64,000 bases of DNA from Bilabrum cf. latius (Eukaryota): contig OZ237742.1 in assembly GCA_965178125.1 (NCBI GenBank), positions 434,001 through 498,000 of the forward strand, given 5' to 3'. Positions within the stretch are counted from its first letter, which is position 1. The number at the start of each line of letters is the position of its first letter. The position numbers and the translations under genes are program-made. The notes under the pieces are model-generated. The model did not search any database. It worked only from the letters and a program-made list of their open reading frames with translations, and had not been told where the DNA came from. This document shows, piece by piece, positions 1 through 64,000 of the stretch.

Positions 1-2
1 TT

Positions 3-1988
3 GATAGGCTGGGAGATCCTGAGCCGGACGCAGGCGAGGTCGGAGGAGTCCAAGAGGAGAAGGGAGCGCAAGCTACTGGGAGTGTCTAGGCTGGCACACC
101 AGCGAGCGGGGCTGGGGCCGGTGCAGCGGCAATGCAAGACGGTGACGATGCAGTAGATACCGCAACAGGTATAGAACCCAGTACGGCAGACGCGCCTAGA
201 CTCAGACCGGCCGTGGTGGTACTGGGAGCCACATCCAAGCCGGAGAACATCGACCCGGGTCTCAGGCGATCGGGCAGATTCGACAGAGAGGTTGGGCTGG
301 GCATTCCAGACGAGAAGGCGCGGGCGCACATCCTGCGGCGACTCACGCGAGGGATGAAGCTATCTGAAGAAATCAATGTTGAAGACATTGCTAGGCGGTC
401 GCCTGGATACGTTGGAGCTGACCTCGCTGCGCTGACCAAGGAGGCCGCAGTGTGCGCGGTGCACCGCGTGTTCGGAAAGGTAGTGGCGGGATCTGGACTG
501 GGCTCGGCGGCTGCGATCAAGCCTCCAGTGGCTAGCAGTTTGCCAGGCATCGCTGCATCTGGCATGTCTTCGGCGCTGTCCGCATCTGCTGCGGCCACAT
601 CCTCTTCGACCTCGTCTTCCTCCTCGTCCAGCGCTGCAGCGGGCACGACTTCAAGTCAGCGCACGGAGGAGAGCTTCTCCAAGTTCGAGAGGGAGAGCAA
701 ATACTTACGTGAGATGGGCCCGCTCGGCCATGGGCTGCTGGACGAGCTCAAGGTTACGATATCCGATTTCGAAGAGGCACTCAAGAAGGTGCAGCCGTCG
801 GCCACACGGGAAGGCTTCGCCACGGTGCCCAAGGTGACGTGGGACGATGTTGGCGCCCTGCAGAACATCCGAGACGAGCTGCGTCTGTCGATCTTAGAGC
901 CGATTAGGAACCCAGAGGCCTATCAGGACCTCGGCATGCTGGCATCGGCTGGCCTTCTGTTGTTTGGCCCCCCCGGGTGCGGCAAGACTCTGCTGGCCAA
1001 GGCGATCGCGAATTAGAGCGGGGCCAACTTCATTTCCGTCAAGGGCCCCGAGCTGCTTGATAAATACGTGGGAGAATCCGAGCGCGCGGTGCGGCAGGTT
1101 TTCTCCAGGGCCAACGCGTCGGCGCCATGCGTCGTTTTCTTTGACGAGATTGACGCGTTGGCGCCCCGCCGCGGTGGCTCTGGCTCCGGGAATGCCGTGA
1201 CTGATCGGGTTGTAAACTAGCTGCTCACCGAGCTGGATGGCATGGACGTACGACGAGACGTCTTCATCATCGCTGCAACCAACCGACCCGACATCATCGA
1301 CAAGGCCATGCTTCGGCCGGGGCGCCTGGACAAGTTGTTGTACGTGCCTCTGCCCACTGCCAGCGACAGGGCGGCCATCCTGGAGACTCACACCCGCAAG
1401 GTTCCGATGGGCACCGACGTGGACGTGCACAAGCTCGCTCACGATCCTCGCTGCGAAGGATTCTCAGGTGCAGACCTTGCGGGCCTGGTGCGCGAGTCGG
1501 CCATGGAATCTCTTAGAGAGCGGTTGGGTATGGAGCCGAGGGCGGTCGCAGAGAAGAGGATGGCGTCTGCTCCTCGAGGAGTTGGAACAGGTGCGATTGC
1601 AGCGCCAGCGACTGCCGTAGCTTCTACATCCTCGTCGTCTGGTGCTTCAACCGTTGATGTACCAGCCACGCCAGGGGGGACCAAAGCATCCGTCTGTGCC
1701 CGGCACTTCGACGCTGCGTTCGACAAGGTAAGGCCGTCGGTGTCTCGAGCGGACCAGCGGATGTACGAGAGGATCAGGGCCTCCGTGCACGGCCTGAGCG
1801 GGGCAAAGGGCAAGGCTGCGCGAGTGGCAGAAGCAGCCGCGGCCGTAATCAAGGCCTAGAGCAAGGCTGGTCCGGGGGACTCTGGGTCTGAGGCGAGCGC
1901 TGGCGCATCAGGCAGTGCAGCTGACAAGACTGGAGTCAGTGGCTCGTCCGCAGCACCAGTTGGTGCCGGGCCGATGGACGCTGACTGA
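3..1988 (+). CDS. NVL: NVL/Rix7-like double AAA+ ATPase (CDC48 family), 5' end outside window; 4 in-frame TAG
   Basis: One frame joins ORFs 132-1016 and 1242-1859 through TAG 1014 and 1218: [84 protein letters not shown]. Further TAG at 87 and 1857. Ends TGA 1986-1988. Confidence 0.88.
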
Positions 1989-2111
1989 TCTGGGGACGCA
2001 GGTATAAATTAGACACAACGAATTCCGGAATCTCAATCAATCAACAACATACTACCTAGCACCAATGAACTAGAACCTGGCTGGCCGCCAAAACAACTTC
2101 GCAATCCTTCC

Positions 2112-5100
2112 TCAAGTCGACTGTGAGGCGCCCCCTGATTTGCTCAACACCCCCCCGGCACGACGCAGTGGGCTCTCATCTGGATCTGCAGCGGACCGAG
2201 CCTCCCCGATACCTGCGGGCCGGGCATTATTGCCGACGCCGGCAATGCCTCGCCGTGCGTCCCTCGATCTTGCGGCTTCAAATGTCTATGCGGCTGCCTC
2301 GGCCTGCGCCAACGCCCTTGCCAACGCCTCGCCCTGCTGCGCATCTACACCGCGACCAGCACCCGTGGCGGACGCTCGTGCTCGCGCACCAGCACCAACA
2401 GCAAATCCTGGACGTCCGTTTGCAGCCTATGCGGCAGCGCTATTCATGGCTCGCAGGGCAGCGAGGTCGCTCGTGGCCAGTATGGCAGGGTCCGGAAGGG
2501 CCCCCACACTGACGGCTGATTGCCTCGGCGCGCCAGGACCACCGGCTCCTCGCCTGCCATGACTGTGCTGCCCGTGAGTTGCCACCTTGCTCTTCCGCTT
2601 CTTCGATTTCGTGGCACTGGCCCGCTTCCCTCCGCTCGCCGGTGGCTTCCCGCCGGGCCCGTCCTTACTACCATGCGGTCGCGCGGGGCCGGCCAGCGGG
2701 TTGTGGTAGCCCCCTCCCTGCCCGGAATCGCTCAGCCAGTTCGGTCTCGCCCTGCCGATTCCAATGGCACCGCCCCGCCCCCTCTTCGTTTCGCCCCGCT
2801 AGTGGGACTGCCGGGGCCTTCTCTCCAGAGGTGAGCTCGCACGAGACGAGCGTTCGCTGGCTTGGCCACCGCGTTGACTCCCACTGGCACCTGATTGCCG
2901 CTGCGAGCCCGAGCCCGAGCGAGGGCCGGGGCCAGCGCCGCCCTCGCGCGCAGAGCCAGCACCAGCACCAGCATGTCCCCCTGGTCTCATGCCTACCAGC
3001 CCACCTTGCATGGCAGCAGAGGTGCGAGCCGCGGCATGAGCTGCATCGGTTGCATCGCCGGCAACAGGGGTGTCTGTGTCACCACCTCCCGCCATTGACA
3101 ACCGCTGCCAATCTCCATCACCATCCACCCACCTGCGGCGGTCTGGACTGGCAGCCATGCTCCTCGGGCGCTGGTCGTCTGAGTCGCTCGCGTGACTCAC
3201 CGATCGGCTGGACCTGCCGGCCGAGCTAGTTCCATCCCCCCTGTACCCAGCTCTGGAGCGCGGGGGCGGTCGCTAGTTGTCCCTGGCAGACATGTCCAGC
3301 AGTTGCAGCTGCTCTTGCACCGCCTCCTGCGCTGCAGCACTCGCACGAGCCTCACCCGCTCCTGCGTTCGCGGACTCACCCCCGGGGTGTCGCACGATGG
3401 GCAGCTTGGGCACCGCGCTGAGCCCTTTGTCGCCACCTCGTGCACGTCTGGCCGATTGTACCGCCTCATTCGTGAGATCAAGGGGCATGGATGCGTTTGT
3501 GTGCGCTCCTTGATTGCCTCTTGTTCGGCCACCAGCGCTTGCGACGCGGCTGGGGCTCGTGCTGCCGACAGATGGGCCCCTTCCAGCCGGCCTCATCGCC
3601 GTGTCAACGGTACTCTGCTGCAAGCCGCGCATCTTCGGGAGTGCCTCCACGCGAAATGCAGTCCTCTACAAGTCGTACCACCTGCGATCGTCCTTGCCTG
3701 GCTGCTTGCCCTCGCGGCTCGACTCTCCTGCTACGGTCACGCTCCTGGCACTGGCCTCGTCACCGCCCGCCTGCATGTACCGAATGGCATGCAGCCTCAA
3801 GTTGCTGCTGTAGGCAGCCACTTTGCCCAGCTCCTCCCTTCCACTAGATCGGTGCACGCGAACGATCGTCCCGACCGGCAGGTGGGTGTGGTTACACACG
3901 GCCCTCTGGCGCTCTTGCTGGAGCTGCTACGCCAGTGCCGCGGCAGTCTGCTGGGCTTGCGCAAGCGAAAGCGTCATAACCCGGTTCTGTTCCAGAACAG
4001 CAAGTGCAAACGGCCTGGCAGGCCACTTGCGATCATCTAGGTACCTGTGTAGCGCAGGCGGTGCAATTCGCTCCAGCCGTACCAGCTGCTGCTTCTGCAT
4101 ATCGTCCAGGCGACTCTCCAACGAATCGCGGAGCTCCTGCCCGTCCATCTGCCGCTGCAGCTTCTCGTCAACGACCCAGGCAAGCACGCTGAGCACCGTT
4201 TCGTAGAACCCGGCGCCGCCGTCCCCGTCGCTGTCGTCCTCCTCGATGTCCTTGCGGGTCCACCGTGCCGTGCCCCCGCCCGGCGGATCTTCTGCCGACG
4301 CGTCGCTGCCAAAGTGCGGGTATGCGGACTGCAGCAGCTCGTGGAACGCATCGGCTGTCAGCTCGTCCGCGCCTGTGAATGGCCTTGCAGCACCTCCGTC
4401 TGTCGGAGAACCGCCTCCGGGCGAGCTCCTTGGACTGTCACTGGAGGTTCGCGCCAGCAAGTACAGTGCCAAAAGCTGGCGCCGCACCGCGAACGGTGCC
4501 GTGGTGTGCTGCAGAACCTGCCCAACCATCGGAGGAGGCAGCTGCGAGAGCTCCTGCTGCTCGAGGCCGAGGGCTTCCTCTGGCCGCGCGGCAAGCACGA
4601 AGGTACAAAGAGCACGCACATCTGCAGCCGCAATCTCATCCAGCTGGTCAGCCTTTGAGGATACTTCGTCTGCAGGCTTGGTGCGTTCTTTGGAATGGCT
4701 CTCCGAGTCAGATCCTGCAGCAGCCGCGGTCGCGTTGGAGGGCGCCGCGTCACCGCCATCGAGCTCCGCCGCGCGTCGCTTCAAGGCCTCATACCTCTCC
4801 AATGCCGCTGCGGCTCTGCGCTGCCTGGACTTGTTGGTAGGATCATCACCCGCCGTGGACTCTGCTGCTCCTGCCCCAGCAGTGCGTGCTTCGGCTGCAA
4901 CCTCACCAGAACCGGGACCGACGCAACGACTGCAGGCGTGCAGCACGGCAAGACAGTCCGGGATCGGCATGGACTGCGTGTCCAGCAGAGGCAGGAGGTC
5001 GCTCACCTCGTGGGGGCGCGACCCTGCTTGCTGCAAGTACCCGTGCGGCGCTTGCACGCCCGCGGCTTCGCCCTCCCTTAGAAAGCCGTCCCCGAGCCAC

Positions 5101-6494
5101 CCCGACGCAACTTTCCCGGCGCTCTCGCCCGTAGTATCACCGGTCTTGAGCAGGGCAGACCGACGGGCATGCGCAAGGAGCCTCACACGCACGTAGGCGA
5201 GCACAGCCCTGCCAAGTCGGACCAGTCTCCTCTCTGCCTTGGCCCTGCCAGTCTCTCGGCTGCTGCCCGAGGCTGGGCCATCCTCATCGTCTTCGCTTGA
5301 AGAGTCTGGCACGCCGCCCTCCCCGCTCGCTTGCCTCCCGCTCCCACTCGTGCTCCCCGCCGTCCTCCCGCTTGTCAGGTCCAGTTCCTTCCTGCCACCC
5401 TGCTCCGCGCCAGCGTCCCCAGAGGCCCTCAGCCGGGTCCTGGCCTCTTGCGCGAGCAGGAAGAACACCGCAGGGGGTAGTCGAGCAGCAGCACCAGTGG
5501 CATCTCCGGTGCCCAGGCTAAGGAGCCCGTTCCCAGTCGAGCCGGAGCCAGCCGCTCCTCTCCACGACGAGTCTTCCCCCGACGCAGCAGCACCTCCTGC
5601 GCCCTCGCGCTCCCCTTCTTCTTCTTCTTCTTCTTCTTCACCGCCGAGGTCTTGAGGCCTGGACTTGTGCTTGAGGTCGAACTATTCTCGATGAATCTCG
5701 TCCCTGCGCCCTGCCTCGATGGCGGCAGCCTCCTCCTCGAACGCACCCACCAGCCGTCTCCAGGAGACGCCCCTGGCGATCGCCTTGGCGCAGCGCTGGA
5801 CCACGGCATTCTCGGGAGCAGATGCCCCAGCAACGCTCTGCGCGCTCAGTAGTACCCGCAAGGCCTTCTATGGGTCCTGGTCTACTTTCCTGGACAAGAA
5901 CTTGTCCGCGAGGGCCTGCAGGCCGGACATCTGCAAGTAGGACGCAGCTACCCTGACTTGGGCGACGTTGTCTGCGGTGACCAGGGTGGCCACGTTCACC
6001 TCATCCTTGTAGCAAAATCTAGCTACAATGTCGAACACCTCAGCACCGCCTGGGATGGACAGTGGCAGCGGGCCTTCATCGGACGTGTCGTCCTCGAGTA
6101 GAGACTCAAGAAGGGGCGACCCCGTCTTGAGGACAGGATACTTGTGCATGCGGAACACATGGCCATCCACAAGAAACGAAACATCAGCATGAGTTGCGTG
6201 CGCCGGCTCAAATGGCGCAAACTTTCTCTGCTGTTCGCATACGATCACCTGCCCATCCTTGAATCCCAACGCAGCGGGTGTGTCATCCTATCCCACAACA
6301 ACATCTCCAGCCTTAAACACCAGCGTCGATAGGACTAAGTTTCTATGGTACGCATATGAATGGAACAGCTTGGCCATTGTGGTGCTCGGCTTCACCTTGA
6401 AGAAGACTTCGTCATCTTCGGTGGCTTTCTTAACCGACACTGTCAGCACAGCCGCTGCATCCCCACTTCGCGTCTCTGACCCAGACGAACTCAT
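2112..6494 (-). CDS. ~1460-aa protein: SUMO-like N-terminal domain, NPH3-type BTB/POZ domain, putative Tudor-like domain, low-complexity tail; 9 in-frame TAG
   Basis: ORFs 6288-6494, 5868-6269, 3927-5468, 3666-3899, 3273-3650 and 2799-3200 share one frame, separated only by TAG; ends TGA 2112. Motifs EVFFKVKPSTTMAKLF..DTPAALGFKDG (SUMO-like) and FRMHKYPV..IPGGAEVFDIVARFCY (BTB). Confidence 0.8.
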
Positions 6495-7355
6495 GATACC
6501 GACTAAGTTTGCTCAGGCGAACGTGATATGGGCGGCTAAACCCATCAGAGCGCCCCTTCAATGTGCCAATCTGTTCAATTGCAGTTGGGCTCGATTAGCA
6601 CGCAACTCAAGTGAAGCCGTGTCTCGAAACCGAAAATCGGGATTAGTTCTGGGATTAGTTGAGTGGGGATTCGATTCGAGACAAATTTCCGACGGATTAA
6701 CTTGAACTGAGCCTGACATGGTTACATGAGCTGCTAAGGTAGTTTCAAGGCCATGAGTATTATCTTTGATGCTTACATTTAGTTTGAAGAGTAGTCTGGG
6801 TAAAGTTTGATGATGTTTTGATAGTGCCTGGACGCTTCGACTCGACACGTGCCACATTTAATCAAGAGAAATTGGGTTAGGGCTTTGGACTAGTCTGGCG
6901 TAAATCCCGTCGTGATAGATAATCTCATGTGTTCCAAAACACCAGGAGGCTGTGTGGTACCATTCTCACGGGCACCATTGAGCTGCTACGCCCTTCCAGG
7001 ATTCCGTTCGAACCTCCCTCACGTGTCTGCTTGGGCACCTGCTTCTTTGTGCAAATTGATCGAACTCTACGACTATGTCAACGTAAAGTTGATTGTTCAA
7101 ATTAATTAACGCAAGCAAAAGCACTAGCAAAAAGGCCTTCTTGCCGCGTGGTATGCTGGTTGAAGTTAATCCAGAAAATTTAATTCGAACCGAGCACGAA
7201 ATTGGATTAAAATGTGCAATTTAATTATTAATTTAATCCGGATTCGGAGTTTCGAGACAGCACTTGAAAAACCGGACAAATTGCCTACAGGATTCACAGG
7301 CCGGCCAAGCTGGGGCCAGTCTCTATTAGAGTGTTCACACCTAACTCCATACCAA
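6495..7355. promoter_or_regulatory. AT-richer divergent intergenic region with repeated TAATCC/GGATTA motifs
   Basis: Lies between ATG 6494(-) and ATG 7356(+). GGATTA at 6640, 6652, 6694, 7204; TAATCC at 7167, 7234. Confidence 0.55.
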
Positions 7356-10300
7356 ATGGCATATCCAGATGCGAATCCCATTCAACGGATAGCTATTGAT
7401 GACTATGAATTCGCTGCCACGGCATCTGGAACCTTCACCAGGTATATCATCGTCATCGTGCTTAAGGGCAAGGAGTGGTCCGTGAAACGAAGATACTCCA
7501 ACTTCTTGGACCTCCACATGTAGCTTCTCCAGTCCAGGCCTTCGTTGGTACAGACGGTGTACTTTCCTCCGAAGGAGATCTTCTCGACCTTGCTACCTGT
7601 GGTTGAGCATCGCCGGGAGACTTTTCAGCAGTATCTGCGCCGGCTTTCTTAGATTTCTGTGCCGTACGAGGTTTCATCAAGGGGTGTTACACAGGGCTTA
7701 GTGCGACTGCGGGAGTTGGACGAGTTTTTGGAGATTCCACAGCATCTGTTTCCCTCTGCGGTCGACTTGGTCAGGGCGCTCCCTGTTCGCACAGCAACGC
7801 GGCTTGCCGTAGCAAGCGCGGGAACGCAGAGAGTTATCAAGCCTGGAACGCCATTTGCGAGCCCGGGAGCGCAGCGCCTCTCCCGGGGGCGTCGGAGCGC
7901 GCACCTTCAGCGGTCCGCCTCCGCCAGTAGCCAGGCAATGTCGCAAGCCCTGGATGGACAAGCCGCTGCAGACAGGCTCAGCGAGAGGAAACGATCGAAT
8001 TCCGGGGACTCACAGGCGAGCGGGATCTCCCTGGCAACAGTGGAGCCCGGTGCCGGTGGGTCGACCCGCCGAACCGTGCCACCCTCGCTGCCCACGCCAC
8101 CCCCCGCCGTGCAAGCCTCGCTGCTGTCCAGCCCGCCGCTCGCCCCATCAACTTCGCCATCTCAGGGAGCACCGAGAGCCAAGGAGAGCAGCGGCGGTAG
8201 CATGCTTAGCTCGGAGCCACCGCGCCGCAGCTCGATGGTAGACGCCCGCATGCACGGCCACGGTGGGCAGCCCCTCCGGCGAGGACACTCTCACGCGACG
8301 GTGGCCTCGTCCGGCAGCGCGCTGGATGGATTAGATGACTCTCAGTTCCAGGGCAGGAGCTCCCCAGGCGCGTCTAGACGCACCTCATTCGCGGGTGCAT
8401 CTCGAAGGCAGCGGGGGGCCAGCCACGGAGGGGCTGGCCTGGGCGCAGGCGCCCCCGCTGCGCCTGGCCATGCCTAGACATCGAGCGGTGGGGGCGGCTG
8501 GGGGGGCAACAGCAGCTCCAGAGACCCTGTGTTTGCGGGCATGCGCGCGTTCGACTCCTCTGGCGCAACGGGGGGCAGTCCCCTGATCCGTCCGCTCGGG
8601 TCCCGGCCGCCGAGACGAGGCGCGGCTGGGGCAGCGGGCAGCATGACAGCTGAGACGGTGGTGTCGGCGGACAAACGAGTGAAGCGGCTGCTACTCACCG
8701 TCAAGGAGCGGGAAGAGGAGCTCATGCGAGCGGTGGAGCGGCTGCTGACGCCACCTGCCGAGAAGAACAAGCCCAGCACGGACCGCCTGCTTCAGATCAC
8801 AGACCCGGACGAAGTGGCCGTGCCCGACGAGGCCCGCGCCGTCAGGGATCTCTTACGTGCCTGGCGCTCGCAGCCCATGCAATCCCCCGCAGATTCTTTG
8901 GACAGGGTGCGCGAGCTCATCGAGGACCTGGGGGCTTACTCGATCGAGCACAGGAAGGAGATGCTGCGGCCCTACGTGTCGAGGATTAGAGAGGTGGCGG
9001 TGCACGCAGTGCAGTCGGGGCTGGTGCAGTACCTGGAGCGGCAGCTGCAGTCCACCCACTTTCAGGGGATGCGCAGCGCCATGGGCGGGGAGCAGACGGA
9101 CGACGAGGACAAGGCCGCATGGGAGGACGCGTGGAAGCGGGCGGGGCACAAGGTGCCGAGCCGATTCGTGCTCGGGGTACTGCCCTGCCTGAATCTCTTG
9201 TTTAGGAAGCCCCATCAGAGCGGCAAGGCTAGCAACGGTGGCGCTGCTCAGGCACAGGCGGGCGCTCAGGCTGGCTCCGGCGACGAGGAGGATGGCGGCG
9301 AGGAGGACGACGATGGCGAGATCGTGGATGTGGAAGAGCTCTACATTGACGAGGCCACCAAGTACCTGAGAAAATTAGCCCGGCGCGCGGCACAGAGGGT
9401 GGTCATGCTGCCGATCCACCCGGACCTCATGTACCGGGCCCAGCAGTGCGCGGGGGCGGCGGACAGCCTGGTTCACTCGAGGCTGGCAGCAGCGCACGCC
9501 AGGTTTCCCACGCTTCCAGGCCGCCTGTTCGAGGTGCCCCGTGAGATGTGGAAGCGAGTCTCACGGTCATGGGACGACGCCCGCGCCTCGATCGAAGCGA
9601 TGGAAATGCAGCCGCTGCCCTACATGCAGTTGGAAAAGCTGATAGACGCCGCCAGGCAGACCTCCCAGGCCATCACGGACGAGAAACTCGCCCTATCACG
9701 GAGGGTAGCGGCCAGCAGGGGAGAGTCGTCTCCCTCCAAAACGCCGAAATCGTTCGGCCCGGCGGGTGCTGACGAGTTCTTGCCTGGGTTTTTCTGGGTT
9801 GTTGCGAGCGCATTTCCCCACCGCCTTGCAACTATCCACAGCAGCCTCCAGAGGCTCTTGCCGGGGCCAGACGCCAAAGGCGAGGTGCAGTACTTGCTGA
9901 CACACCTCGAGTCATCCGTGATGTTCCTCAGCAGGCTGCACCTCGACGACGACCCGCCAGTGCCGCGCGGACTCGCAGCGCTTCCAGGTGGCGCGGCTGC
10001 GCTGCGACATGACTCGTCGCAGCAGAGCATGCTGGCCTCCCCGGCTCGACCGGCGCTGGGTGTCGCCCAGGAAGGGGACATGGACGTAGAGATGACCGAA
10101 AAGGTGGGTTCTGCCTCCTTCTCGAACCGTGCCTTGGCGATGGATGCGCCTCGCACAGCCTCCGCTCCTGCCGAGCGTGGTCTCGGGAACGGCGCGGGAG
10201 ACGAGATACCGCCAAGCAGCCTCTCAGCCCTGGGCCGCAGCCTGTCTCTCTCCAGTCATGACGATGCGACCATCCCAGGCCTGACGCGCTTCGCTGATGC

Positions 10301-11909
10301 TGACGCTGAGGTGGATTCGTCGGAGGTTCGCCTTCAGTTTCACGCGGACCACCTGACGGTGAGGGCGCTTGACACGCGGTCACAGTCGGTCCGCGACGAC
10401 ATCAGCGAGGCCTCCGCGGCGACTGGTGTATCTGGTCGCACGGGACCGGATGCAGAGGAGCAGGCGGGGACCTCCCTCGCCGGTGACCAGCTTGCTGCTG
10501 TAGACAGCAAGCAAGCAGCACCCTCTGGCGCCACCCTCCACGACGTGGCGCATGCACTCGACCGCGCGTTGCGCCGAGCTAATCCAGCGCTGGGCGCCGC
10601 GAGTGCGGCCGCCTCCAGCCCCGCTGAGAAACGCCGGCAGATTCGGAGGGCCTCGGCGGGCTTAGCCAGGCTTCGGTCCAGGGTAGCCCGCGCTTTTGTG
10701 ACCCACTCTCTCTTCCGTTCGATCGCGCCTTAGGACGCCGTGCGCTGGCTCGTGTACGACATGTGGAGGCAGTCAAGCAGTGCTTCGCTGCTGCAGGCGG
10801 GCACGCGGTTTAGGCAGCAGATCAGCGACGCGCCCATGTGCGTGCGAGGGCCCAGCGCCGGGTGGCTGTGGCTGCTGCATGCGGCACCGCCCCTGCCCGA
10901 GTGGAGCGACAGGTACGCCATGCTGTCCTTCCTGCCACAGCCACCTGCGCCTTCTCGAGACCCCGCGCTCGAGGTGGGCCACTCGTTGCTCCACAAGGGG
11001 GCCCTCACTTCGTCCATGGTGGCGGACGGGCCCGCCACGCCGCAGAGGCCCGTGGATGACTGGCCCGAGTGCACTCGGCGCGTGCTGGTGTGCCAGCGCG
11101 GCACGAACCAGTTCTTCTTCCAGTGCTTTAGCGAGCACGCGGACTGCTCGTGGTCGGCTGCGCGCCCGGGGGAGGTGTACCGAGGGGGTGCCAAGCGGGT
11201 GCTGCAGGCGATGGGGCTGCAGGGCATGGCGGGTGCGCGAGGACATGGTCGAGGAGGAGCGGGGTCTGCCAGTGCCGTGGAGGGCGACGATGATCGGCTG
11301 CACCAGATCGTTGGTATCCGACGGTCGGATTACGTGCCAGTTGCGAGCAGCGAGTCTGGCGATGCCGGCGCTGGGATTGCGGGCGCTGCGACGACTGGCA
11401 GGCCGGCGCAGTCAGCAACCAAAGGCGTCGCTGTGGGGGCTGGCGGTGCCGACGCTGCGATGCTATCGCAGCCTGGCTCCAGCGACGAAGGCCGTGGGGC
11501 TAATGGCATCCCCGCCGGGACACCCATTGCCAGCACAGGCAGTGGGACTGCCGCAGGACGGCCACCCGTCCATGCGGGACCTAGTGCTGGATCAGAGGCA
11601 GCTGGCAGCATCGCAGCGGCTGATGCTGTTACGAGTCCAGCCGGTGGTGGCCTCGATGATGCGATGCACAGCAGCATGATGAGTTGGTGTGGCCCGTTCC
11701 GCACGGCCGACGCCTGCATCATATTCGCGTAGGAGTATTACGAGACTGGAGGCAGGGTGATGGGCGAGGGAGGAAGCTTGGATTCGAGTGCGGGGGCGGC
11801 TTTGTCAAAGGCACGAGCGGCTGTGGGCAGAGGGGCGAGGCCAGGTGCGGTGCAGGGGGCGGGGGTGGCGCCAACACGGCCGTTAGCTGCCGGTGGCAGT
11901 GGGAGCTAA
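7356..11909 (+). CDS. ~1517-aa PX-domain + VPS9-domain protein (putative Rab5-family GEF); 5 in-frame TAG
   Basis: PX: YIIVIVLKGKEWSVKRRYSNFLDLHM*L..FPPKEIF..VVEHRRETFQQYL. VPS9: GADEFLPGFFWVV..GEVQYLLTHLESSVMFL. Single frame through TAG 7521, 7650, 8475, 10731, 11730; ends TAA 11907-11909. Confidence 0.8.
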
Positions 11910-14487: not shown

Positions 14488-14703
14488 CACTGGCTCCGAA
14501 GAGAATCACGCATTGAACCTCCACTGGTACCCGCAGTCGTGGCAGGTCAAGAACGTCGTCACTGGCTCCGAAGAGAATCACGCATTGAACCTCCACTGGT
14601 ACCCGCAGTCGTGGCAGGTCAAGAACGTCGTCACTGGCTCCGAAGAGAATCACGCATTGAACCTCCACTGGTACCCGCAGTCGTGGCAGGTCAAGAACGT
14701 CGT
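14488..14703. repeat. Tandem repeat, 3 x 72 bp, covering the last TFIIS codons, the stop and adjacent 3' UTR
   Basis: Unit cactggctccgaagagaatcacgcattgaacctccactggtacccgcagtcgtggcaggtcaagaacgtcgt starts at 14488, 14560 and 14632. Confidence 0.95.
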
Positions 14704-29157: not shown

Positions 29158-29336
29158 ATACAAAAAAAATGTTTGGACTGCGCTGCCAATACCCTCTAGC
29201 TAGTCACGGGGTGCCAAAAATGAATTGTGGATACTAGCGACTCGGAGCCAAGAATCAGCGTGGCTGAATTCTCGAAAATCAAGATTATTTCGTTCGTTGT
29301 ATTCCTGTTGAATCGTGGGCTCCGTTTTTAATCGAT

Positions 29337-34498: not shown

Positions 34499-34717
34499 TG
34501 CTTTGCTTGGGACAGGCTCTAGTTGCCTTTCTGCATCTTGGTGTTTTTTGTTTTCATCTTTATAAATTTATTGTTGCGTGCAGAGTATACCACACGTCTG
34601 CAATTGTGCCTGCAAGCTTCTGTAGCGAAATCATAGAGAAGTACTAAAGGTGTTATTGTTGCAGCGTGTGATCTCGACTTTCGGCTGGATCTACTTCTTG
34701 CAGCTTCTTGCAAGACC

Positions 34718-50160: not shown

Positions 50161-50274
50161 GTGCTGCCGTGCAGTCCGAAGTGCAACTGCAAGTTGGTGC
50201 TGCGGCACCGCCGCAGGTGGCGCGGCGGCTTGTGTGCCGCGGCGCCGGCTCCGCACCCCACGCAATCCCATACC

Positions 50275-53356: not shown

Positions 53357-56300
53357 TCACGCCTCTTGGGCGGTCGGGGCTGGGGCCGGGGACACGGACT
53401 TGGCGCCGGAGGGCGACCCCTGGCTAGACATCTCGATTGACTTCTGGTGCGCCCGCGCAGCGGCAAGGTTACCAGACTTGACTCCATCCAGGGACAGCCC
53501 GTCGTCGAAGTGCGGGTGCGCCGGCGGCCCGACAGTCGCGAGCACCACGGGCAGCAGGATCATCCCGTGCCCGATCCCAAGCACCACGCTAAGGAAGAAG
53601 CACTTAAAGAACACCACGAAGATGTAGGACTGCGACACGGAGAGCACCACCACCGCGAGGAAGGTGGAAGTGGCTCCGTTGATGATCGCCACACCCATGT
53701 CCGACAGGGCCAATGCCGCGCGCCTGTCCGTGTCGCCATGCTTGTGCATGAAGGCCTCCCCGAGGTGAAGGCTGTAGTCCACCGCGATGCCGATTGCCAG
53801 CACCAGGTTCACCGACACCACCCCGTCCAGAGTGACATCCCAGGGAACAAGGTAACCCAGGATGTTGAGCAGCACGAGGGCCACCATGAGCGTGAGGTAC
53901 ACCATCATCAGCGGGTGCGCCACCACGATTAGCACGATCACCGCCACCGCAGCTACGGCCAGACCCAGGTTCTGCAGGATCTCCTGCTGCACCACCTTGT
54001 ACTGCTCCGCGTCAAAGAACGCAAAGCTGAACGCGAACGCATACCCAGTGAAGCCCGCCTCCTCGGCAGCCTCCTCCACCTTTGCCCTCGTGTCATCCAT
54101 CGCGTCGATCTCCTCCTGCGAGGACTAGAACGCCCGGAAGAAGGCCGTCACCCTCGCGATGGAGATCACGTCAGTGTTGGCGCTGGCATCGTAGATGATG
54201 TCACTGGAGAACCTGGCTCCCTGCCCGTTGAACCAAGTCTGGAATCCCGCCACGAAGGCCTGCTTCGTGACACCGTCAGCAAACAGGTCGGGCCTGTCTG
54301 TGCGGAACGTTTCGGCCCAGCACAGGACGGGCTGCGAATCGCTCACAAAGGTGCTCTCCCTCAGCGCATCGCACAGGGCTGGCATCACGTTCCTGTCCTC
54401 GAAGACCTGCAGGCTCCTCGCGTACGCGCTGATGGGCCCTCCCGAGTTGGTGAAGTATTCGTTCTGGATGTCGTACCACTCCTGCAAGGGGGAGTCCGAC
54501 GGGACGAACCACTCGGAGCGGAATTCCTGCTTGAGACCGGTCACCTGCCAAGCAGCCACTGCCGCAAGGATGGTGAAGACGGCCACAGTCGCGATCTTGC
54601 CGGGTACCGACAGCAGGTAGCCGGCGTAGTAATGGTAGATGATGTACCGCGCCGCACCAGGGCCGCAGTATCCCTGGCTTGGGACGGGGGGCTCCGGGCT
54701 GATGTACTCTTCTTCTGGCATCTCCTGGTTGTTGTCCTCTTCCATGCTGACACCGCTCGAGTTGACGGCGTTGTCGGCTGCCTTGGGGGCCGCTGCGGAA
54801 GGAGCGGGTAGATCCTTGGAGTCCGGCTGCTTGGACTCAGAAGCAGTCGGCGAGGAGGCGCTGGCGCGAACCGCTGCGGGCGGGTTGCCCTCTGCCGGAT
54901 TGGACACGGCCTAGCCGGCCTTATCCCCGCCCTCCTTGCGCCTCGGGTCCGTCTCTGGGAAGCTGTAGACTGACTCGGGGTGGCCTTCCCCGGACCCGCA
55001 GCAGCAGCAGACGTCGTACCTGCCGTGCGCCTGGCGCTGTTGGTCGAGGACCAGGCATGCGGGGAAGAAGGTCACGGAGAAGATGAACACTGCCGCGATG
55101 GCGAACGCGGCCCAGATGCAGAAGGACGCCAGTGCAGGCAGCTGGGTGCTGGACCCGATCATGAAGGCCACAAAGTCCGTGAGAGTGGTCGTGGTCATGG
55201 AGCTGCCGCCGTGCCTGAGAGCCTCTGCCACCCTGTCCTGGATGTTCCTCTTGGGGTCCGTGAGGGAGTATTCCTGCACCACCACGAAGATGTCGTCGAC
55301 GCCGATGCCGGCCAGCACGAACGGCAGACTGCGAGAGACACAGAGGAAAGGGGAAACAGAGAGAGAAGAGAGAGGATGCGGCGAGCAAGAACAAGCAAAC
55401 GAGGCAAGCAGGGCAAAACATGATCGCGCGGTGGACAGGATCCGCGATTCCATCCATCCCATTCGACGACTCACACAGAATGCACAGGGCTGTAGAAGCT
55501 TGCAGGGGAGCCCAGACCGTAGGCAGCTCCTAGGGCCATGCCCACCGTGAGCGCACCGCAGATGGATAGTCCAATGCGAAGTCCCACGCACGTGCAGTCA
55601 ACCCTGAGCTGGATCGTCATGTAGACGAGGATGAGCATGATGCTCGCTCCAACGAAGGCCAAATCTCCCGTGATGGCCCTCCCGAACTCGTTGCTCACCC
55701 ACCAGTCCGTGCTGATCACCAGCCTGGCATTGGGATACTCGTCGCGGTTGTTGTCCGGGTCGGCGTTCAGCTCGGTGACGAGTTCCTCCTCCCACGCGTC
55801 CGCCACTGGGTCAATGAACTCGCCGCCCTCGAAGTAGGCGTTATCAGCAATCTCCCACTCCAGGGTGGCGGCCGACGCAGACACGATGCCACCTGCGGGA
55901 TATGGGGGAAGAAAATGAATTTTTGTCGTTTACATTGAGAAAGGCGAAATTCGGGGGCATGGACTTGGCCGCCGTCGTGCGGACAAGGCCAGGAGAAAGT
56001 GCATGCGGGAAAAGCACCTGGAAGACTGGCCACGTCACCTGAGGTCAAGCAGCGGTGCCGATGACGTAGAGATGGCGAGAGAGAATGGGAGGAAGCACAA
56101 AGCTCTATATTTACTCACCTTGGTCGTTCGTGGTTACCCCACCAAGTACAGCTTGAGGGGAGAATGGCTGCCCGAACGCGTTGGTGTACCGCCCGCTGGC
56201 AACGGCTTGGTTGATGTAGTCCGCTGGGCTAGTCCCAGACGCCTCTGCTGCCAGAATGACAGTCGCATTGTAGTCAAACAGAGTCAAGATGGAATTCTCC

Positions 56301-56857
56301 TGGCACTCGTAGTCTTCGGGATTCGGCCCCGTGCTGATGCGTGTGCAGATGTCTCGAAGGGTGACGTCCTCCCTTCGAACTCCATTCTGCCCCGTGGCAT
56401 CCGCCGAAACAGAGTACAGCAACTAATGAAACTTTTGTAGATCCTTAAGGACACCATAGTCGGCAAGGACGTTGTCGCCAGACCTGCTGACTGCGTACAC
56501 GTTCTGTCTTCTGGGCTGACGCGGGAATTCAGCGGACACGATGGCAAAGTCTTTCGATGCTTGAGTATCCTGCGGTGACCACAGCTTTTCAGGTCTAGAC
56601 TCTTCTTCATACTGTCCGATTCCAATCAGGAAAAGTCCCATCAACACGATGGAAAGACCGATCGTGATCCACGGGCCCTGGGCGATGAGACGGCCAAGCC
56701 TCGAGAAGAAGTACTGCAAGCCACCGTCAAGAGTAGCGCTAAACTTCTCAAGGCAAGATGGTTCTTGAGGTTCATTTCCACTTGCTGTGGTAGTCGACGG
56801 CATGATGCCAGGCGTGGAAGAGGCAAGAGTGGGCTGCAAAGGCGCAACGTCAGCCAT
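53357..56857 (-). CDS. Patched/NPC1-related sterol-sensing RND membrane protein; introns 55894-56118 and 55329-55474; 3 in-frame TAG
   Basis: PEKLWSPQD, LPFVLAGIGVDDIFV, GSSMTTTTLTDFVAF, AIGIAVDYSLH, GIGHGMILLPVVL; multiple transmembrane segments. Ends TGA. Confidence 0.9.
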
Positions 56858-56973
56858 CAGTCGGCCGCGACGACAACACCATATCTGGCTCCGGATTAAT
56901 GATAGCGTGTTGTTTTGTACAAATCTGATTATCGTACATATTGCTTGCGCAGAAAGCGCCCATTCGGACCGAC

Positions 56974-58887
56974 ATGGCCGGGGTCTCAAGAGAAGATCAT
57001 TCCTCTCACGAAATTGTTGATGCTTCTCACTTAGAGGCCGATGATTTTAGCCTAGGCCTCCATGTAGCCGTATGGAACAATGATCTCAAGCTGCTCGATA
57101 AATTGCTTGCCCTCAAAGAGATAGACTTGGAAACTAGGGACCCTAAAGGTGCCACACCACTGCTACTTGCATATAAGTTGGGCCGTCACAAGGCTGTGGC
57201 CAAACTGCTGCAATCCGGTGCGTACGCAAAACCGCGAGTAAACAATCGTTGGGAAGCTCAGCACTTTGCGGCCTGCACGAGAAACGTACCCATGCTACGA
57301 ACAGCTACATTAAGTATACTGAAAGAAACTGACCTGGCGTGGGAGCGCCGGGTGCCGCGGCTCATGGCGGCCCTGAGGGACATACCTGATTTCGATCTGA
57401 CCATGGAGTGGACGTTCAGGTCTTGGATCCCGCTGGTAAGCGGAATGCTACCCAACGACACAGTCAGGATTCGAAAACGTGGAACTGCGCTTCGGTTCGA
57501 CATGACACTGCTCGGCATGGAGAACCTATCGTGGCAGCGTGGCGACACGCAACTTGTCATGTAGGGCGAGGAGCATGGCAACCCTGGAGCAGTCTTGCTC
57601 ATGGATTCGCAGCTGAAGACCGCTGGAAACGGCAGGACACCCCTGACTCTAGCACCGGACACGTCTGTCCAGGATATTGTGCGAAAAACGCTGACGCAGG
57701 AGCAGTCCGACACGGACGTGTGGAGCAGGGACTGCCACATGACCCCAGTCAAAAAGACCTCCTGGCTCCTGTTCGACTCGGCGGAATAGGCCAGCGAAGA
57801 GGTAGGGGACTGGGGCCAGTGCATGCAGTACAAGCTCTCGGGCATGAAGCTCCGCAGCCTCAAGCATCCGGCCATTTTGCCAGAGCTCCCTCTGGAGTCC
57901 TGGTGGAAGCCCGAGTACGCCCTGGATAGCAGGCTGGCGAAAATCCCAGAGTCGGAGAAACAGCCTGGGATCCGCAACTGGGAGGCAGTAGGGCCTTACT
58001 TCAGGAAGGATACGGAGAAGGCCGGCTCGGCGGGGGCAGCCAAGGGAGGGGCGGGTGCTGGCGGCAAAGGCGGCTCGGGGGCGGGGGCGGGGGCCGATGG
58101 CGGGGACAGAGACTCGCCTCCTGAGGCGGGACTGGCCCCGTTGAAATCGATGATAGGCAAGTTGGAGTCGGGCGGCCTGGGTGGCGCCAGCAGCATCGAT
58201 TGGGAGACAGCGCTGAGTGGCGATGCCGACGGGCTCGCGGACTCTGCCCTTGACAGCGCCACTGTGAAGCAGCAGACCTTTTACTCGTATTTCGAGGGGA
58301 AGAAAACCGGACGAGTGGACCCGAATGACATCCGCAACAGCAACCGGGGCAGCAGGGGCATTTTGTCGCACCACGAACACGAGCACGAGCACGAGGGTGC
58401 TAGAGGGGATGCAGAGGCCGCCGCCGCCCCAGGGGAAGCAAAGGGCGAGGGCGAAGATAAAGAAAGGAAGGAGCGTTCAGCTAGCAGCGAGTCGGTCGAG
58501 GTCAGCATCGCGCCAAAAGCAGGGTGCGAGAAGCTGCCAGTGGCTGACATATACCCCGAGAACGTTCGTTCGGAGGAGAAGGTTCTGGATGCCAGCGTGT
58601 TTTTCAGCAAGGACTTTCCGCTGACGAGCGAGCAGATGGTCTCCGTGGTGGGCGTCATGGCGAGGACAGCCACCCACTTTAAGAACGTGCAGCGCTTCTT
58701 CGAGACCAAGATGCCCCAAGATGCCGGGTTCCCCGTCAAGTTCCAGATCCCTGCCTTCATCTCCGTCACTGCCACGGTGACGTTCAGCAAGTGCAAGCTG
58801 TGCACGCCGGAGGCCAGCCTGTTCGAGGTGCCCGGTGACTTCGAGTGGGGGGCCTACAAAGAGAGAGGCATGATCCGACAGCTGTGA
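56974..58887 (+). CDS. ANKRD13: ANKRD13-family protein (ankyrin repeats + GPCR-chaperone domain); 2 in-frame TAG
   Basis: LHVAVWNND, DPKGATPLLLA, PDFDLTMEWTFRSWIPLVS..KRGTALRFDMTLLG, DFPLT, GFPVKFQIP..ATVTF. Ends TGA. Confidence 0.85.
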
Positions 58888-58960
58888 GCGCTACGCGGTT
58901 CTTGGACGGGTGTTTATACATAGCGTAGCACATCCCTGAATAGTAACACGCACACAATCA

Positions 58961-60525: not shown

Positions 60526-62909
60526 ATGAAGAGGCGCGGTGGTGCGGGTAGGAAGCGCCCTAGGGATGAACAGAATGATGATGCATAGGATCGCAAGCGT
60601 GGAGTCTCCTTGAAGAACTCTATCCGCTCTTTGCGCCGTCTCCTCGTCAGCAAGGTAAGGCTTCAATTTATTTTTGCCCAGGCCCTGTAATTGGACAGAA
60701 CGGCAGCGATGAGACTTGTAAGAGTGTTAAGCCTTATTTTTCCACGCAGTGGGACGAAATGTCATTCGAGGCTAGGCGCCAGAAAGTTAGGATGCTCCGC
60801 AAACAGCAGCAGGAACTCGATGAAAGGAAGCGAAGCGAGAGAGAGCACGCCCTGCTGCTTCGTTACAGGGGAATCATGTTTACGGAACGATAGAAGGCAA
60901 GGCGACGTCTCAAGCAGGTTGAGAAGAAACTTGCATCCGAAGACGCGAGCGGAGGGGATCTCGATTCGCTTCAGTCCGACCGCCTGCGCTACCTGGAAGA
61001 TATCGCGTATACGAGGTGGTTTCCAAGGGGACAGAAATATATCAGTCTGTACCCCTCGCGGGAAATGACGGAAGCAGACATCCGACGCCGCGATTGGCTG
61101 AGAAAGTGGGCACTGGCGAACGCAGCCGCCGAGAAGCACCTGCCCGATCCCCCAGAGCTGCTCCCGGGCTAGAGGAGAGAGCTGGCGCACGCACTGACCG
61201 ACCACAAGAAGAAAACATAGCAAGGAAGCGAACCAGCTGCAGCGGCATCATCCTCTTCATCCACCGCTTCCTCATCAGAACCAGCGTCAGCGGCTGGAGC
61301 GGAAGCGCAGGACCTGGATGAGGAAGCCCTCATTTCTCAGGCAGCGGAGGCCAGCAAAGGTGCAGGAGCGATCGCTCTCCTCAGATAGTTCCAGACCAAG
61401 GCACTCGTAGTGAACGTTCGTCCAGGGGAACAAGGCAAGAAGCCGAAGCCCATCAGCGACGACCGGCCAGATCTCTAGAGGCGCAAGGGCAAGGGCAAGG
61501 ACAAGGACGAGCAGCGGGGTGCCGGCAAGTCTGAGTCGCCTGAAGCTGCTAAGGAAAGTAGTCCCGGCACAATCAAGGGTGCAGATAAGTCTGCTGTGTC
61601 TGGTAGCTCGAACCAGCCCGCGTCATCGTCCGGCTCCGATTCTAGCAGTGATAGTAGCAGCGATGACGGTAGTGGTAGCGACAGTGGGAGCGAAAAAGTC
61701 GGCAGTCGTGCTGCTGCCCCAGCTCCAACCCCAGCCCCGTCCTCATCCTCGTCTGCATCGTCGAGCAGCTCAAAGCACAGGCCTACGATGGCCCAGCTAG
61801 AGGATCTCCTGGACCCGAGGGCAGCCAAGCGGGCCCAGCGGATGGAAGCCAGGAGGGGCATGCAGGACGCAAGGGATCTTGACAGCGAGATGGGAGGAGC
61901 TGCCGAGGGGGAGGGTGACGGGGTTGGGTCTCGGGGATCGAAGGGAAGAGGGAGTGGAGGGGGTTCAGGACTGGAGCCTGTGTCCGCGGGGGGCGAAGAG
62001 GGTGGGGAGGCGGGGGCTGCTGCTGCTGAGGAGGAGGAGGAGGAGGTGGATGATTTTCTCCTCGGGGGCGGGGACGACGACGGTGATGGGGGTGATGGAG
62101 AGGAGGGAAAGTAGGGCGACGGATTTTTGCTCGCAGGGGAGGAAGGCGATGAAGAAGAGGGGCAGGGTGGGGAAGAAGATGGGTCGACCGGTGGCGGGTC
62201 AGCGCATGGACCAGCAGCCAAGAAAAGGAGAACAGCGGCCTCCACTGTGCCTCTGTTCAAGAAAGAGGAGAGCCTGTTCGAGGAGCTGGGGGACGGCTCT
62301 GACATGACCGAGGTGCCGGGCAGCTGGCGCGCTGCTTTCAGGGAAAAGGATCAGGGCAAGGCGCTCCGGAGGATGGCGTTCCAGGCCCAGCAGGGGGACA
62401 CTGGCCTCACGGCAGAGTTCAGGGGCCGATACAGCGACACTGCCGCCAACAGGAAGGGCAAGTCGGGCGGGGCGTTGGATCGCGTGAAGAAGTAGCTGGC
62501 CCGGGCGTACTTGCGGGAGATGAGGGGCCGAGGGCGGGGTAGAGGGGCTGGGCGCGGGGGCATGGGTGGGCGCGGGGGCATGGGTGGGCGCGGGGGCATG
62601 GGTGGCCGCGGGGGCATGGGTGGCCGCGGGGGAGGGCGAGGGAGGGGGCGAGAGGGGGGGCGTGGTGGAGGTTTTGGTGCGGATTATGGGAGGGGGCGCG
62701 GAGGTGGAAGTGGTCGAGGCGGCTACGGGGGTCGTGGGAGGGGCGGAGGGTTTGAGCGCGGTAGGGGGGGTGGGGGCCGGGGCGGGTGGGCCGACCGCGG
62801 TGGTGGTCGAGGTCGAGGTGCATCGGGAGAAGGGACGGGCCGGGGAGATCACAGCCATGCGCCGAGGACAACCGCAGGTCCGGCAGGGCGCAAGCACATG
62901 ACATTTTGA
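60526..62909 (+). CDS. EFG1: rRNA-processing protein Efg1 with long acidic and RGG-rich extension; intron 60655-60749; ~8 in-frame TAG
   Basis: LKNSIRSLRRLL, MFTER*KARRRLKQ, DIAYTRWFPRGQKYISLYP match Efg1 motifs. The frame continues through TAG to TGA 62907. Confidence 0.8.
62550..62630 (+). repeat. 18-bp coding repeat, ~4 copies (GRGGMG)
   Basis: gggcgcgggggcatgggt repeated within the RGG tail. Confidence 0.85.
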
Positions 62910-63178
62910 TCGCAAATCTTTCAGCTCTGAAGGATTCTAACGCGTGGGGAGGGAAGCCGCACCACTGATCGAACCGCACAGAAGGTTCGTTTCTTTCCAC
63001 CAAACCTTCCGTGCAGAAGAAACAGAACTGAATTGCCTCAAGATAGCTGGTATCGCCGATTTCCTGGGACTAGAGCCAGCACAAGCTTGTACTAGACTTT
63101 AATTTTCTATAGCAGCCACTTTCCGCTGCAGTGACACGTGCGTGGCAGCTACCTGCGGCAGTCGCACGTTGGTGAAAG

Positions 63179-64000
63179 ATGAGTCGTCCAAGACGCACAT
63201 CGAAGCGTTCATCCGCTAAAAACGCTCTGGTAGGTTTGCCAGGCAGTAGAACCACAAAACCAGCTGGCGGTTCAGGGCGCCGACCTCCTTTCCTGGTGAA
63301 GCTCGTGCAGATGCTCGAAACCCCATCCCTATCTGATCTAATAGCATGGACACCGGATGGTCTCGGCATTCTAATCCAGAACCCAGATAAATTCGCGAGT
63401 GATGTGCTACCGCGCTTTTTCCGGCATAGCTCCCAAACATCATTCTTGCGATCGATGAACTTTTACGGGTTTCGCACGATCAAGCAGCTGAAGGGGCAGT
63501 GGCGAGTGTTCGGTAATCCCAGCTTCCGACGAGGCAACACGGAGCAGCTATTCCAGGAAAGACGAAACGTTCGCAACCTCCCCGGATCCTCCGGGATGGC
63601 CGCCACATCGCCGTTTGCAGGCGGCTCGCCGGGCCACCCTCACCCGGTCCCACCATCCGTGGGTGCGGCAGCTGCATACCCTTTCCAGCAGCAGCAGGCC
63701 CCGCAGGCGAACACATCAGCACCTCCTGCGCGTGCATTCCCAGGCGCATCGGCGTGGTCAGTCGGTGCGGGCGCTCCCCAGCCGTCCTATCCGTCGCATG
63801 CACGTGCAGGACCCGCCGGAGAGGACTCGCAAGGCTCAGCCATGACAGGCTCCGGGCAAGGGAGCGCCCCCAGGGCAGGAGCTAGCATGGGCATGCTGGA
63901 CGACTCCCTTGTCGGTTTCCCCGCGGATGGCAGCTCCGGTGCCGCTGCTGGTGCGAGACACCGTGGCGGGTCTGGAGCTCACGATCTTGACCTGGGTGCG
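63179..64000 (+). CDS. Heat shock transcription factor (HSF DNA-binding domain), runs off the window
   Basis: Manual translation from ATG 63179: PPFLVKLVQML..IAWTPDG..PDKFASDVLPRFFRHSSQTSFLRSMNFYGFR..FGNPSFRRG. Absent from the ORF track because there is no stop in the window. Confidence 0.88.
   Translation, partial: MSRPRRTSKRSSAKNALVGLPGSRTTKPAGGSGRRPPFLVKLVQMLETPSLSDLIAWTPDGLGILIQNPDKFASDVLPRFFRHSSQTSFLRSMNFYGFRTIKQLKGQWRVFGNPSFRRGNTEQLFQERRNVRNLPGSSGMAATSPFAGGSPGHPHPVPPSVGAAAAYPFQQQQAPQANTSAPPARAFPGASAWSVGAGAPQPSYPSHARAGPAGEDSQGSAMTGSGQGSAPRAGASMGMLDDSLVGFPADGSSGAAAGARHRGGSGAHDLDLGA

Follow-up and report, generated by a model that had tools for sequence, protein, structure and literature searches.

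The subject of this report is the meaning of the codon UAG in a 64-kb stretch of DNA, called the window here and taken as the whole stretch that was analysed. The window is gene-dense, has a content of guanine plus cytosine (GC) of about 60%, and is nuclear DNA, because spliceosomal introns are present. A preliminary description of this DNA had proposed that UAG (TAG in the DNA) is read in it as glutamine (Gln, Q). Reading with the standard code breaks most of the window's genes into pieces. When TAG was read through, 17 long complete open reading frames (ORFs) and one ORF reaching past the window's end were obtained. By Pfam matches, 20 genes could be named: an NVL-type AAA ATPase, a SUMO-like/BTB gene, PX+VPS9, ODAD1, PFK2/FBPase2, a beta-helix protein, UMP synthase, a protein kinase, V-ATPase subunit A, a REX4/ISG20-type exonuclease, a GT61 glycosyltransferase, a Patched/NPC1-like gene, ANKRD13, Efg1, an HSF fragment, gamma-glutamyl hydrolase, TFIIS, a Laminin_B-domain protein, CRAL/TRIO and an EF-hand protein. 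The genes with individually located TAGs are as follows.

3..1988, plus strand: NVL/Rix7-type AAA ATPase, 5' end outside the window; TAGs 87, 1014, 1218 and 1857; stop TGA
2112..6512, minus strand: SUMO-like + BTB gene (Pfam); nine TAGs, at 6288, 5868, 5682, 3927, 3666, 3273, 2799, 2427 and 2286; stop TGA
7170..11909, plus strand: PX + VPS9 gene (Pfam); TAGs 7521, 7650, 8475, 10731 and 11730; stop TAA
12311..13390, minus strand: gamma-glutamyl hydrolase (GGH; Peptidase_C26); TAGs 13064 and 12401; stop TGA
14650..15561, minus strand: TFIIS; TAGs 15424 and 15130; stop TGA
15954..17309, plus strand: ODAD1-like outer-dynein-arm docking coiled coil (Pfam ODAD1_CC); nine TAGs, at 16044, 16167, 16263, 16449, 16482, 16647, 16992, 16998 and 17001; stop TGA
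19838..23401, plus strand: main exon of 6-phosphofructo-2-kinase/fructose-2,6-bisphosphatase (PFK2; Pfam); seven TAGs, including 20102 and 22526; stop TAA
25930..29673, minus strand: g7, family unknown; 19 in-frame TAGs, 15 of them after the first ATG; stop TGA
29268..30359, plus strand: CRAL/TRIO (Sec14-like); TAG 30021 in the domain; stop TGA
46268..48584, plus strand: V-ATPase catalytic subunit A (Pfam); TAGs 46579 (exon 3) and 46932; stop TGA
48706..50274, minus strand: REX4/ISG20-type 3'-5' exonuclease (Pfam RNase_T); TAGs 49471, 48991, 48979, 48940 and 48751; stop TGA
53357..57046, minus strand: Patched/NPC1-like sterol-sensing-domain gene (Pfam); TAGs 54125, 54911 and 56423
56929..58887, plus strand: ANKRD13-like (Pfam); TAGs 57562 and 57787; stop TGA
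60748..62909, plus strand: Efg1 rRNA-processing protein (Pfam Efg1), with an intron upstream; TAGs 60891, 61170, 61218, 61386, 61476, 62112 and 62493; stop TGA

The Pfam AAA match of NVL covers positions 1-131 of the 131-position profile and runs across two TAGs. Upstream exons of PFK2 lie near 19400-19830, and g7 had no Pfam match.

Abundance and position of in-frame TAG

The preliminary description had singled out four sites, all of which were found in frame: TAG 1218 in NVL (context VVNxLLTELDG), 46579 in V-ATPase A (ASIxCYENT), 49471-49473 on the minus strand in REX4 (KIxSGEH) and 60891 in Efg1 (ERxKA). In-frame TAGs were counted in the 18 long ORFs, which were delimited by TAA and TGA only. 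These ORFs contained 89 TAGs, with at least one in 16 of the 18, and 83 of the 89 were downstream of the first ATG, among 15,311 codons (5.4 per 1000). Six further ORFs or exons added 10 TAGs, of which that at 19347 precedes the first Met and that at 59996 is intronic. Our recount of approximately 97 is in accord with the earlier figure of about 100. The accompanying figure of 23 of 26 TAG-containing genes could not be reproduced exactly, although at least one coding TAG was present in 17 of the 20 Pfam-supported genes. UMP synthase and the HSF fragment are Pfam-supported genes without TAG, and the sole TAG of the Laminin_B gene is upstream of its first Met.

Pfam domain matches continued across internal TAGs. 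Twenty TAGs were located inside the best Pfam domain stretches, 17 in the long ORFs and one each at amino acid (aa) 109 of GGH, aa 144 of TFIIS and aa 252 of CRAL_TRIO. A single gene carried up to 15-19 TAGs. The Gln-type codons after the first ATG comprised 83 TAG, 469 CAG and 118 CAA (TAG, approximately 12%), and CAA and CAG occurred at 7.7 and 30.6 per 1000 codons, respectively. TAG was similarly frequent in frame (83) and in the two other frames (106 and 108). The corresponding numbers were 0 versus 44 and 55 for TAA, and 0 versus 240 and 266 for TGA. Furthermore, the number of ORFs of at least 1000 codons rose from 1 to 5 when TAG was treated as sense, but only to 2 when TGA was so treated, although TGA is the commoner triplet.

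Gene ends

Among 22 gene ends, 17 were TGA and five were TAA, and no end needed TAG. The 17 ends and the complete lack of in-frame TGA indicate that UGA is a terminator and not a sense codon. The pattern proposed in the preliminary description, that of NCBI table 15 (TAG as Gln, TAA and TGA as stops), thus held throughout, with TAA or TGA at the end of 22/22 genes and neither of them in frame.

Because in some organisms a codon serves both as sense codon and as stop (Condylostoma and karyorelict ciliates; UAA in Blastocrithidia), we considered whether UAG might be context-dependent, specifying Gln inside genes and terminating near some 3' ends. TAGs do occur shortly before the final stop, 7 codons before it in gene g10, 14 in REX4 and 42 in NVL, and the 42-codon tail of NVL extends beyond the C-terminus of human NVL. 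However, every one of the 22 genes reached TGA or TAA, and the relatives described below conserve sequence past internal TAGs, for example after aa 1082 of g7 and after aa 1238 of the SUMO/BTB protein. The same question in Iotanema was settled against a dual meaning, according to the relevant part of PMC5304391. We regard a dual role of UAG in the window as unlikely.

It is less probable still, and by our estimate quite improbable, that UAA and UAG both encode Gln, as in NCBI table 6, with UAA merely scarce at high GC content. TAA is indeed scarce in every frame, so that a low in-frame count would be expected, but the ratio of CAA to CAG (118:469) predicts approximately 20 in-frame TAAs if TAA encoded Gln, and none was observed against 83 TAGs. 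Five genes end at TAA, and in the three that were checked the next in-frame stop was only 19, 7 and 43 codons downstream. Furthermore, no domain match was broken at TAA. Two short introns, and not a read-through TAA, account for the apparent lack of the PFK2 N-terminus.

Codons and residues at TAG sites in related lineages

With ODAD1 as query, an exhaustive protein search gave four short sequences that were 96-98% identical to parts of it, and relative fragments of the same kind were found for g7 and the SUMO/BTB protein at 82-97% identity. These proteins (P0121-P0130 and P0159-P0163; 82-98% protein identity overall) are fragments of the genes of a close relative, called under the standard code. 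Twelve TAG sites of the window were covered by them, and the close relative had Q at 10, E at one and an ambiguous residue at one. The ODAD1 fragments P0121, P0122 and P0130 had Q at three TAG sites and ended exactly before three others. The g7 fragments P0159 and P0160 (82-88%) had Q at aa 336 and 1082 and ended at the TAG of aa 454; the residue at aa 365 was ambiguous through an indel. In the SUMO/BTB fragments, Q was found at aa 215, 277, 862, 1080 and 1238, and fragments ended at the TAGs of aa 1362 and 215 and before the window's CAG at aa 239 and 865. When the metagenome protein P0165 was included, eight internal fragment ends were available, six of which fell exactly before a TAG of the window and two before a CAG. 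Q at TAG sites, together with fragment ends at TAG and CAG, indicates that the close relative has the same code and that TAG and CAG are freely exchanged.

The C-terminal ODAD1 fragment of the relative, P0125, was compared with positions 17060-17309 and is approximately 88 residues longer than the window gene, which ends at TGA; the two organisms differ at this gene end.

A more distant relative was represented by a metagenome contig, L001, which is syntenic with window positions 5862-11156 at 69-77% DNA identity in aligned blocks; a second contig, L002, is identical to part of it. Protein identity was approximately 65-80% (65% for PX/VPS9). The head-to-head order of PX/VPS9 and SUMO/BTB is kept in L001 (ORFs at 3-4190, minus strand, and 4320-5111, plus strand) at approximately 70-73% DNA identity, and these two ORFs contain 11 and 2 in-frame TAGs, respectively. 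Two TAG sites of the window fall beyond the end of L001.

In the codon alignment of PX/VPS9, TAG was common to both at aa 118, window TAG faced L001 CAG at aa 161 and 1188, and L001 TAG faced window CAG at aa 153, 191, 1157, 1217 and 1318. In that of SUMO/BTB, L001 had CAA at aa 75, and TAG was common to both at aa 215. Thus, among well-aligned sites, two TAGs were shared, the window's TAG faced CAG, CAG and CAA (3/3), and the TAG of L001 faced CAG in five of six cases and GGG in the sixth. The partner of a non-shared TAG was CAG or CAA in 8 of 9 cases.

With the two relatives combined, 20 informative comparisons were available, giving Q in 18, E in one and G in one. By BLOSUM62, these comparisons summed to 45 bits for Q, as against 19.5 for E and 8.5 for K. 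UAG interchanges with CAG and CAA between lineages in the manner of a synonymous codon, and some of its sites are positions at which Gln is not conserved. The code is common to at least three related lineages, and the reassignment is older than their split.

Residues at TAG sites in solved homologues and Pfam profiles

The proteins were also aligned with homologues of solved structure (PDB), with TAG translated as X. At NVL 1218, Q was present in 5/5 of the alignments shown, as the preliminary description had claimed. TAG 46579 of V-ATPase A corresponded to Q in subunit A of both Thermus and mammals, and TAG 49471 of REX4 to Q in ISG20L2, ISG20 and PAN2 and to R in SDN1 (Q in three of four distinct proteins). 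PFK2 20102 also corresponded to Q. In all, Q was found at four of the six TAG sites compared.

The Pfam scores of whole proteins were in the same direction. Summed over 11 families, Q exceeded E by 6.9 bits, a difference that is too weak to be used alone; the comparison with the relatives was far more decisive. For Efg1, Q gave 69.5 bits, E 67.5 and X 66.2.

TAG in spliced RNA

Public sequencing runs that matched the window comprised X1-X4 (DNA, covering the full stretch), X5 and X7 (study P2) and X6 (study P3), none of them on record as RNA. Contigs from these runs were compared with window positions 44001-63000 (19 kb). Nine segments bounded by GT..AG (CT..AC in minus-strand genes) were skipped in X5-X7 contigs and retained in X1. 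Nine such joints in X5-X7 and none in X1 indicate that the X5-X7 contigs derive from spliced RNA. The introns are as follows.

45957-46072: intron
46283-46374, plus strand: intron of V-ATPase A
46419-46512, plus strand: intron of V-ATPase A
46598-46689, plus strand: intron of V-ATPase A
55329-55474, minus strand: intron of the Patched/NPC1-like gene
55890-56115, minus strand: intron of the Patched/NPC1-like gene
59932-60021: intron
60166-60256: intron
60653-60747, plus strand: intron upstream of Efg1

Six of these introns are strikingly uniform in size (90-95 nt); the remaining three measure 116, 146 and 226 nt. The spliced joints of V-ATPase A were seen in X5, X6 and X7 and not in X1, and the three exons of the Patched/NPC1-like gene were joined in one X5 contig and in one X6 contig. 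An X5 RNA contig spanned REX4 (48647-50473) with 0 differences, RNA contigs spanned positions 60748-61894 of Efg1 with 0 differences, and both TAGs of the ANKRD13-like gene were inside X5 and X6 RNA contigs. Of 26 in-frame TAGs in the 19 kb, one of which (59996) is intronic, at least 18 were inside the RNA pieces listed, and at least 13 were covered by both RNA studies among those pieces. The TAGs of the GT61 gene (50749-53170) and those at 62112 and 62493 were in no RNA piece among those listed. Only three differences were recorded in the 19 kb, at 53980, 54308 and 54356, and none was at a TAG.

The preliminary description had named UAG in mature mRNA as a check on its proposal, and the spliced contigs of two other studies keep TAG, with no CAG at the covered sites. 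Since the TAGs are unchanged in spliced RNA contigs, assembly error and U-to-C editing are excluded at these sites; the RNA evidence consists of contigs, which may mask rare variants.

Exon 4 of V-ATPase A contains an Ala/Gly/Ser-rich insertion at 46900-47050 that holds TAG 46932. The insertion is present in RNA contigs and lies outside the Pfam domain matches.

Assignment of UAG and proposed mechanism

Four independent lines, namely the mRNA contigs, the close relative, the DNA of the distant relative and the conserved Gln columns in solved homologues, support the proposal that UAG is a sense codon for Gln, with UAA and UGA kept as stops. Decoding of UAG as Gln is efficient, as a gene may hold up to 15-19 TAGs and sequence downstream of TAGs is conserved. 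Taken as a whole, the window is very probably the nuclear DNA of a flagellated eukaryote with few introns and a high GC content (approximately 60%), which is probably a deep-branching stramenopile and whose cytoplasmic code reads UAG as Gln and uses UAA and UGA as terminators, UGA being the chief one.

Several observations weigh against this assignment. NVL 1014, which was absent from the list in the preliminary description, faced E in 5/5 of the solved homologues shown, and PFK2 22526 faced K or R. The single E in the close relative was at aa 949 of SUMO/BTB. Rad60-SLD and ANKRD13_C scored 0.4-0.6 bits higher with E, and the Pfam scoring covered Q, E and X only. In the comparison with L001, the TAG facing GGG was in a reasonably aligned stretch, and in poorly aligned stretches TAG faced H, A, L or gaps. 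The zero counts of in-frame TAA and TGA are partly built into ORFs delimited by these codons, yet the ORFs span whole domains and genes. X1 may be the window's own source and would then give no independent support. Neither the window nor L001/L002 yielded a tRNA with ARAGORN, so that the decoding tRNA was unseen; likewise, Rfam gave no match in the window at the gathering threshold, and eRF1 was not among the window's Pfam-identified genes.

The conserved E at NVL 1014, the one E in the close relative and the two Pfam families that fit marginally better with E would suit a sense codon for another residue, most plausibly Glu, as in peritrich ciliates and Blastocrithidia. We consider this highly improbable, because Q was found in 18 of the 20 informative comparisons (45 versus 19.5 bits by BLOSUM62), the partner codon was CAG or CAA in 8 of the 9 DNA-level cases, and the Q columns of V-ATPase A and of the NVL motif VVNQLL are strictly conserved. 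That there is no code change at all, the TAGs being assembly errors, pseudogene lesions, retained introns or sites of U-to-C editing, can be dismissed with near certainty. Nothing was seen in its favour, and the same TAGs appear without differences in the spliced RNA contigs of two other studies. The corresponding genes of two other lineages carry TAGs as well, in some cases at an identical codon; the number per gene reaches 15-19, 17 of 20 Pfam-supported genes are affected, and frame and homology persist on either side of the TAGs.

Reading of UAG as Gln might be achieved by a putative tRNA-Gln(CUA), which could be derived from tRNA-Gln(CUG) by one base, and termination at UAG may have been lost or weakened through changes in the N-terminal domain of eRF1. 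A route through tRNA-Gln(CUA) and eRF1 has also been put forward for Iotanema (PMC5304391) and for the ciliates that share its code.

Host organism

The taxonomic marker used was the following gene.

32855..34567, minus strand: UMP synthase (UMPS), OMP decarboxylase N-terminal and OPRTase C-terminal (Pfam); no TAG; stop TGA

The best 120 matches of UMPS showed only 47-58% identity. All 18 named matches picked from these 120 were stramenopiles, comprising oomycetes, labyrinthulomycetes, a raphidophyte, diatoms, a xanthophyte and brown algae. A tree was constructed from 35 rows (the window, the 18 named matches and 16 unnamed matches chosen from the best 120) with no outgroup. The window's branch was long and fell within no supported group; it was separate from the clades of oomycetes, labyrinthulomycetes and ochrophytes that were sampled, and the tree left the lineage unresolved. 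The host is therefore a probable stramenopile by the single gene UMPS, as the preliminary description had guessed, although its placement is not settled. The presence of an ODAD1 gene suggests that it has a flagellate stage.

The runs X5-X7 were filed under two organism labels (B and C) that differ from the label of the DNA runs (A). Small shares were also found in runs labelled protist metagenome and algae metagenome. The organism may live with or on other organisms.

Comparison with known codes

Nuclear code changes are very rare. Separate meanings of UAG and UAA are rarer still, and the sections of PMC11687900 and PMC5304391 that deal with them name Iotanema, a rhizarian, Scotinosphaera and a few ciliates. 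The closest counterpart is the fornicate Iotanema spirale, in whose nuclear code UAG encodes Gln and UAA and UGA are stops (Panek et al. 2017, PMC5304391). As described in that account, Iotanema resembles the window in the decoupling of UAG from UAA, in the lack of in-frame UAA and UGA, and in a presumed route from tRNA-Gln(CUG) to CUA. In contrast, Iotanema is a metamonad with UAA as its chief terminator, whereas the window is stramenopile-like and GC-rich and uses mainly UGA (17/22). The Iotanema evidence is transcriptome-wide, whereas ours comes from one 64-kb window and fragments of relatives.

UAG alone has also been reassigned to Gln in ciliates, where Protocruzia tuzeti and two phyllopharyngean lineages are given as independent origins (PMC11687900, in its account of UAG-only changes). 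These share with the window a UAG that encodes Gln and a UAA that was not reassigned. The window differs from them in that its UMPS falls among stramenopile sequences, its GC content is 60%, and its GT..AG introns measure approximately 90-95 nt. In other UAG-only nuclear changes, as listed in parts of PMC11687900 and PMC5304391, UAG encodes Leu in the rhizarian exLh, Ser in Scotinosphaera and Glu in Oligohymenophorea sp. PL0344, in which UAA encodes Lys. UAG and UAA are decoupled in these three as in the window, with a different amino acid.

NCBI table 15 has exactly the window's pattern and would translate the window correctly. Blepharisma gave the table its name, wrongly according to PMC5304391 where it discusses the table; the table also fits crAss-like phages, an unrelated system, according to the relevant part of PMC9523058. 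The codes of table 6, in which UAA and UAG both encode Gln, occur in many ciliates, hexamitin diplomonads, ulvophyte green algae, Streblomastix and Amoeboaphelidium, as enumerated in a section of PMC11687900. They likewise turn stops into Gln, presumably via derivatives of near-cognate tRNA-Gln, but in the window UAA is never in frame and ends 5 of 22 genes.

The list of UAG-only cases given in December 2024 in PMC11687900 names no stramenopile in the portion that carries it. A search of full-text literature, which covered few subscription journals and no supplements, found no nuclear code change in a stramenopile. The stramenopile matches that it returned concerned Labyrinthulea mitochondria or were incidental in the passages matched (10.64898/2026.08.26.747235, PMC12574857 and PMC12152300), and are irrelevant to the nuclear code. 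The preliminary description had guessed that the reassignment was undescribed; the literature does not contradict this, although prior publication is possible and novelty is unproven. The code itself is already known, and this is probably its first occurrence in stramenopiles. On balance, we lean towards an undescribed deep-branching stramenopile clade that would read UAG as Gln and stop at UAA and UGA. At least three lineages would belong to it, namely the organism of the window, a close relative represented only in public reads that were assembled, and a distant one represented by two contigs of environmental metagenomes. Stramenopiles would then have their first non-standard nuclear code, in which the rare separation of UAG from UAA would have arisen independently, at 60% GC and with UGA as chief terminator.

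Such a clade would be one more independent case, in a supergroup lineage that is new for such changes, and its relatives of graded divergence would form a natural series for dating the change. It would also allow a search for the tRNA and eRF1 changes behind a UAG-only reassignment. In this GC-rich setting, codon loss under AT pressure is no obvious explanation for the loss of UAG as a stop. In practical terms, standard gene callers fragment these proteins, and public proteins of the relatives are already cut at TAG. Annotation, BUSCO-type scores and metagenome binning will be wrong for the clade unless table 15 is used.

Other features of the window

Long off-frame and antisense ORFs, such as that at 40480-42786 on the minus strand, occur inside GC-rich genes such as the kinase gene. 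Antisense and off-frame ORFs of up to 768 codons under the standard code matched no family and seem to result from the high GC content rather than to be genes.

Three tandem repeats were also observed. At 14486-14712, 3.2 copies of a 72-bp unit (98% identity) overlap the final codons and the stop of the TFIIS gene, whose 3' end appears to be tandemly triplicated. At 24553-25470, an 87-bp (29-residue) unit in 10.5 tandem copies corresponds to C2H2 zinc fingers, in a frame that differs from that of the ORF at 23926-25926 (g6). This ORF was rejected as probably a wrong-frame reading of the finger array, and its single TAG could not be safely counted. Directly downstream of the zinc-finger array, at 25552-25679, a perfect 32-bp unit is repeated four times.

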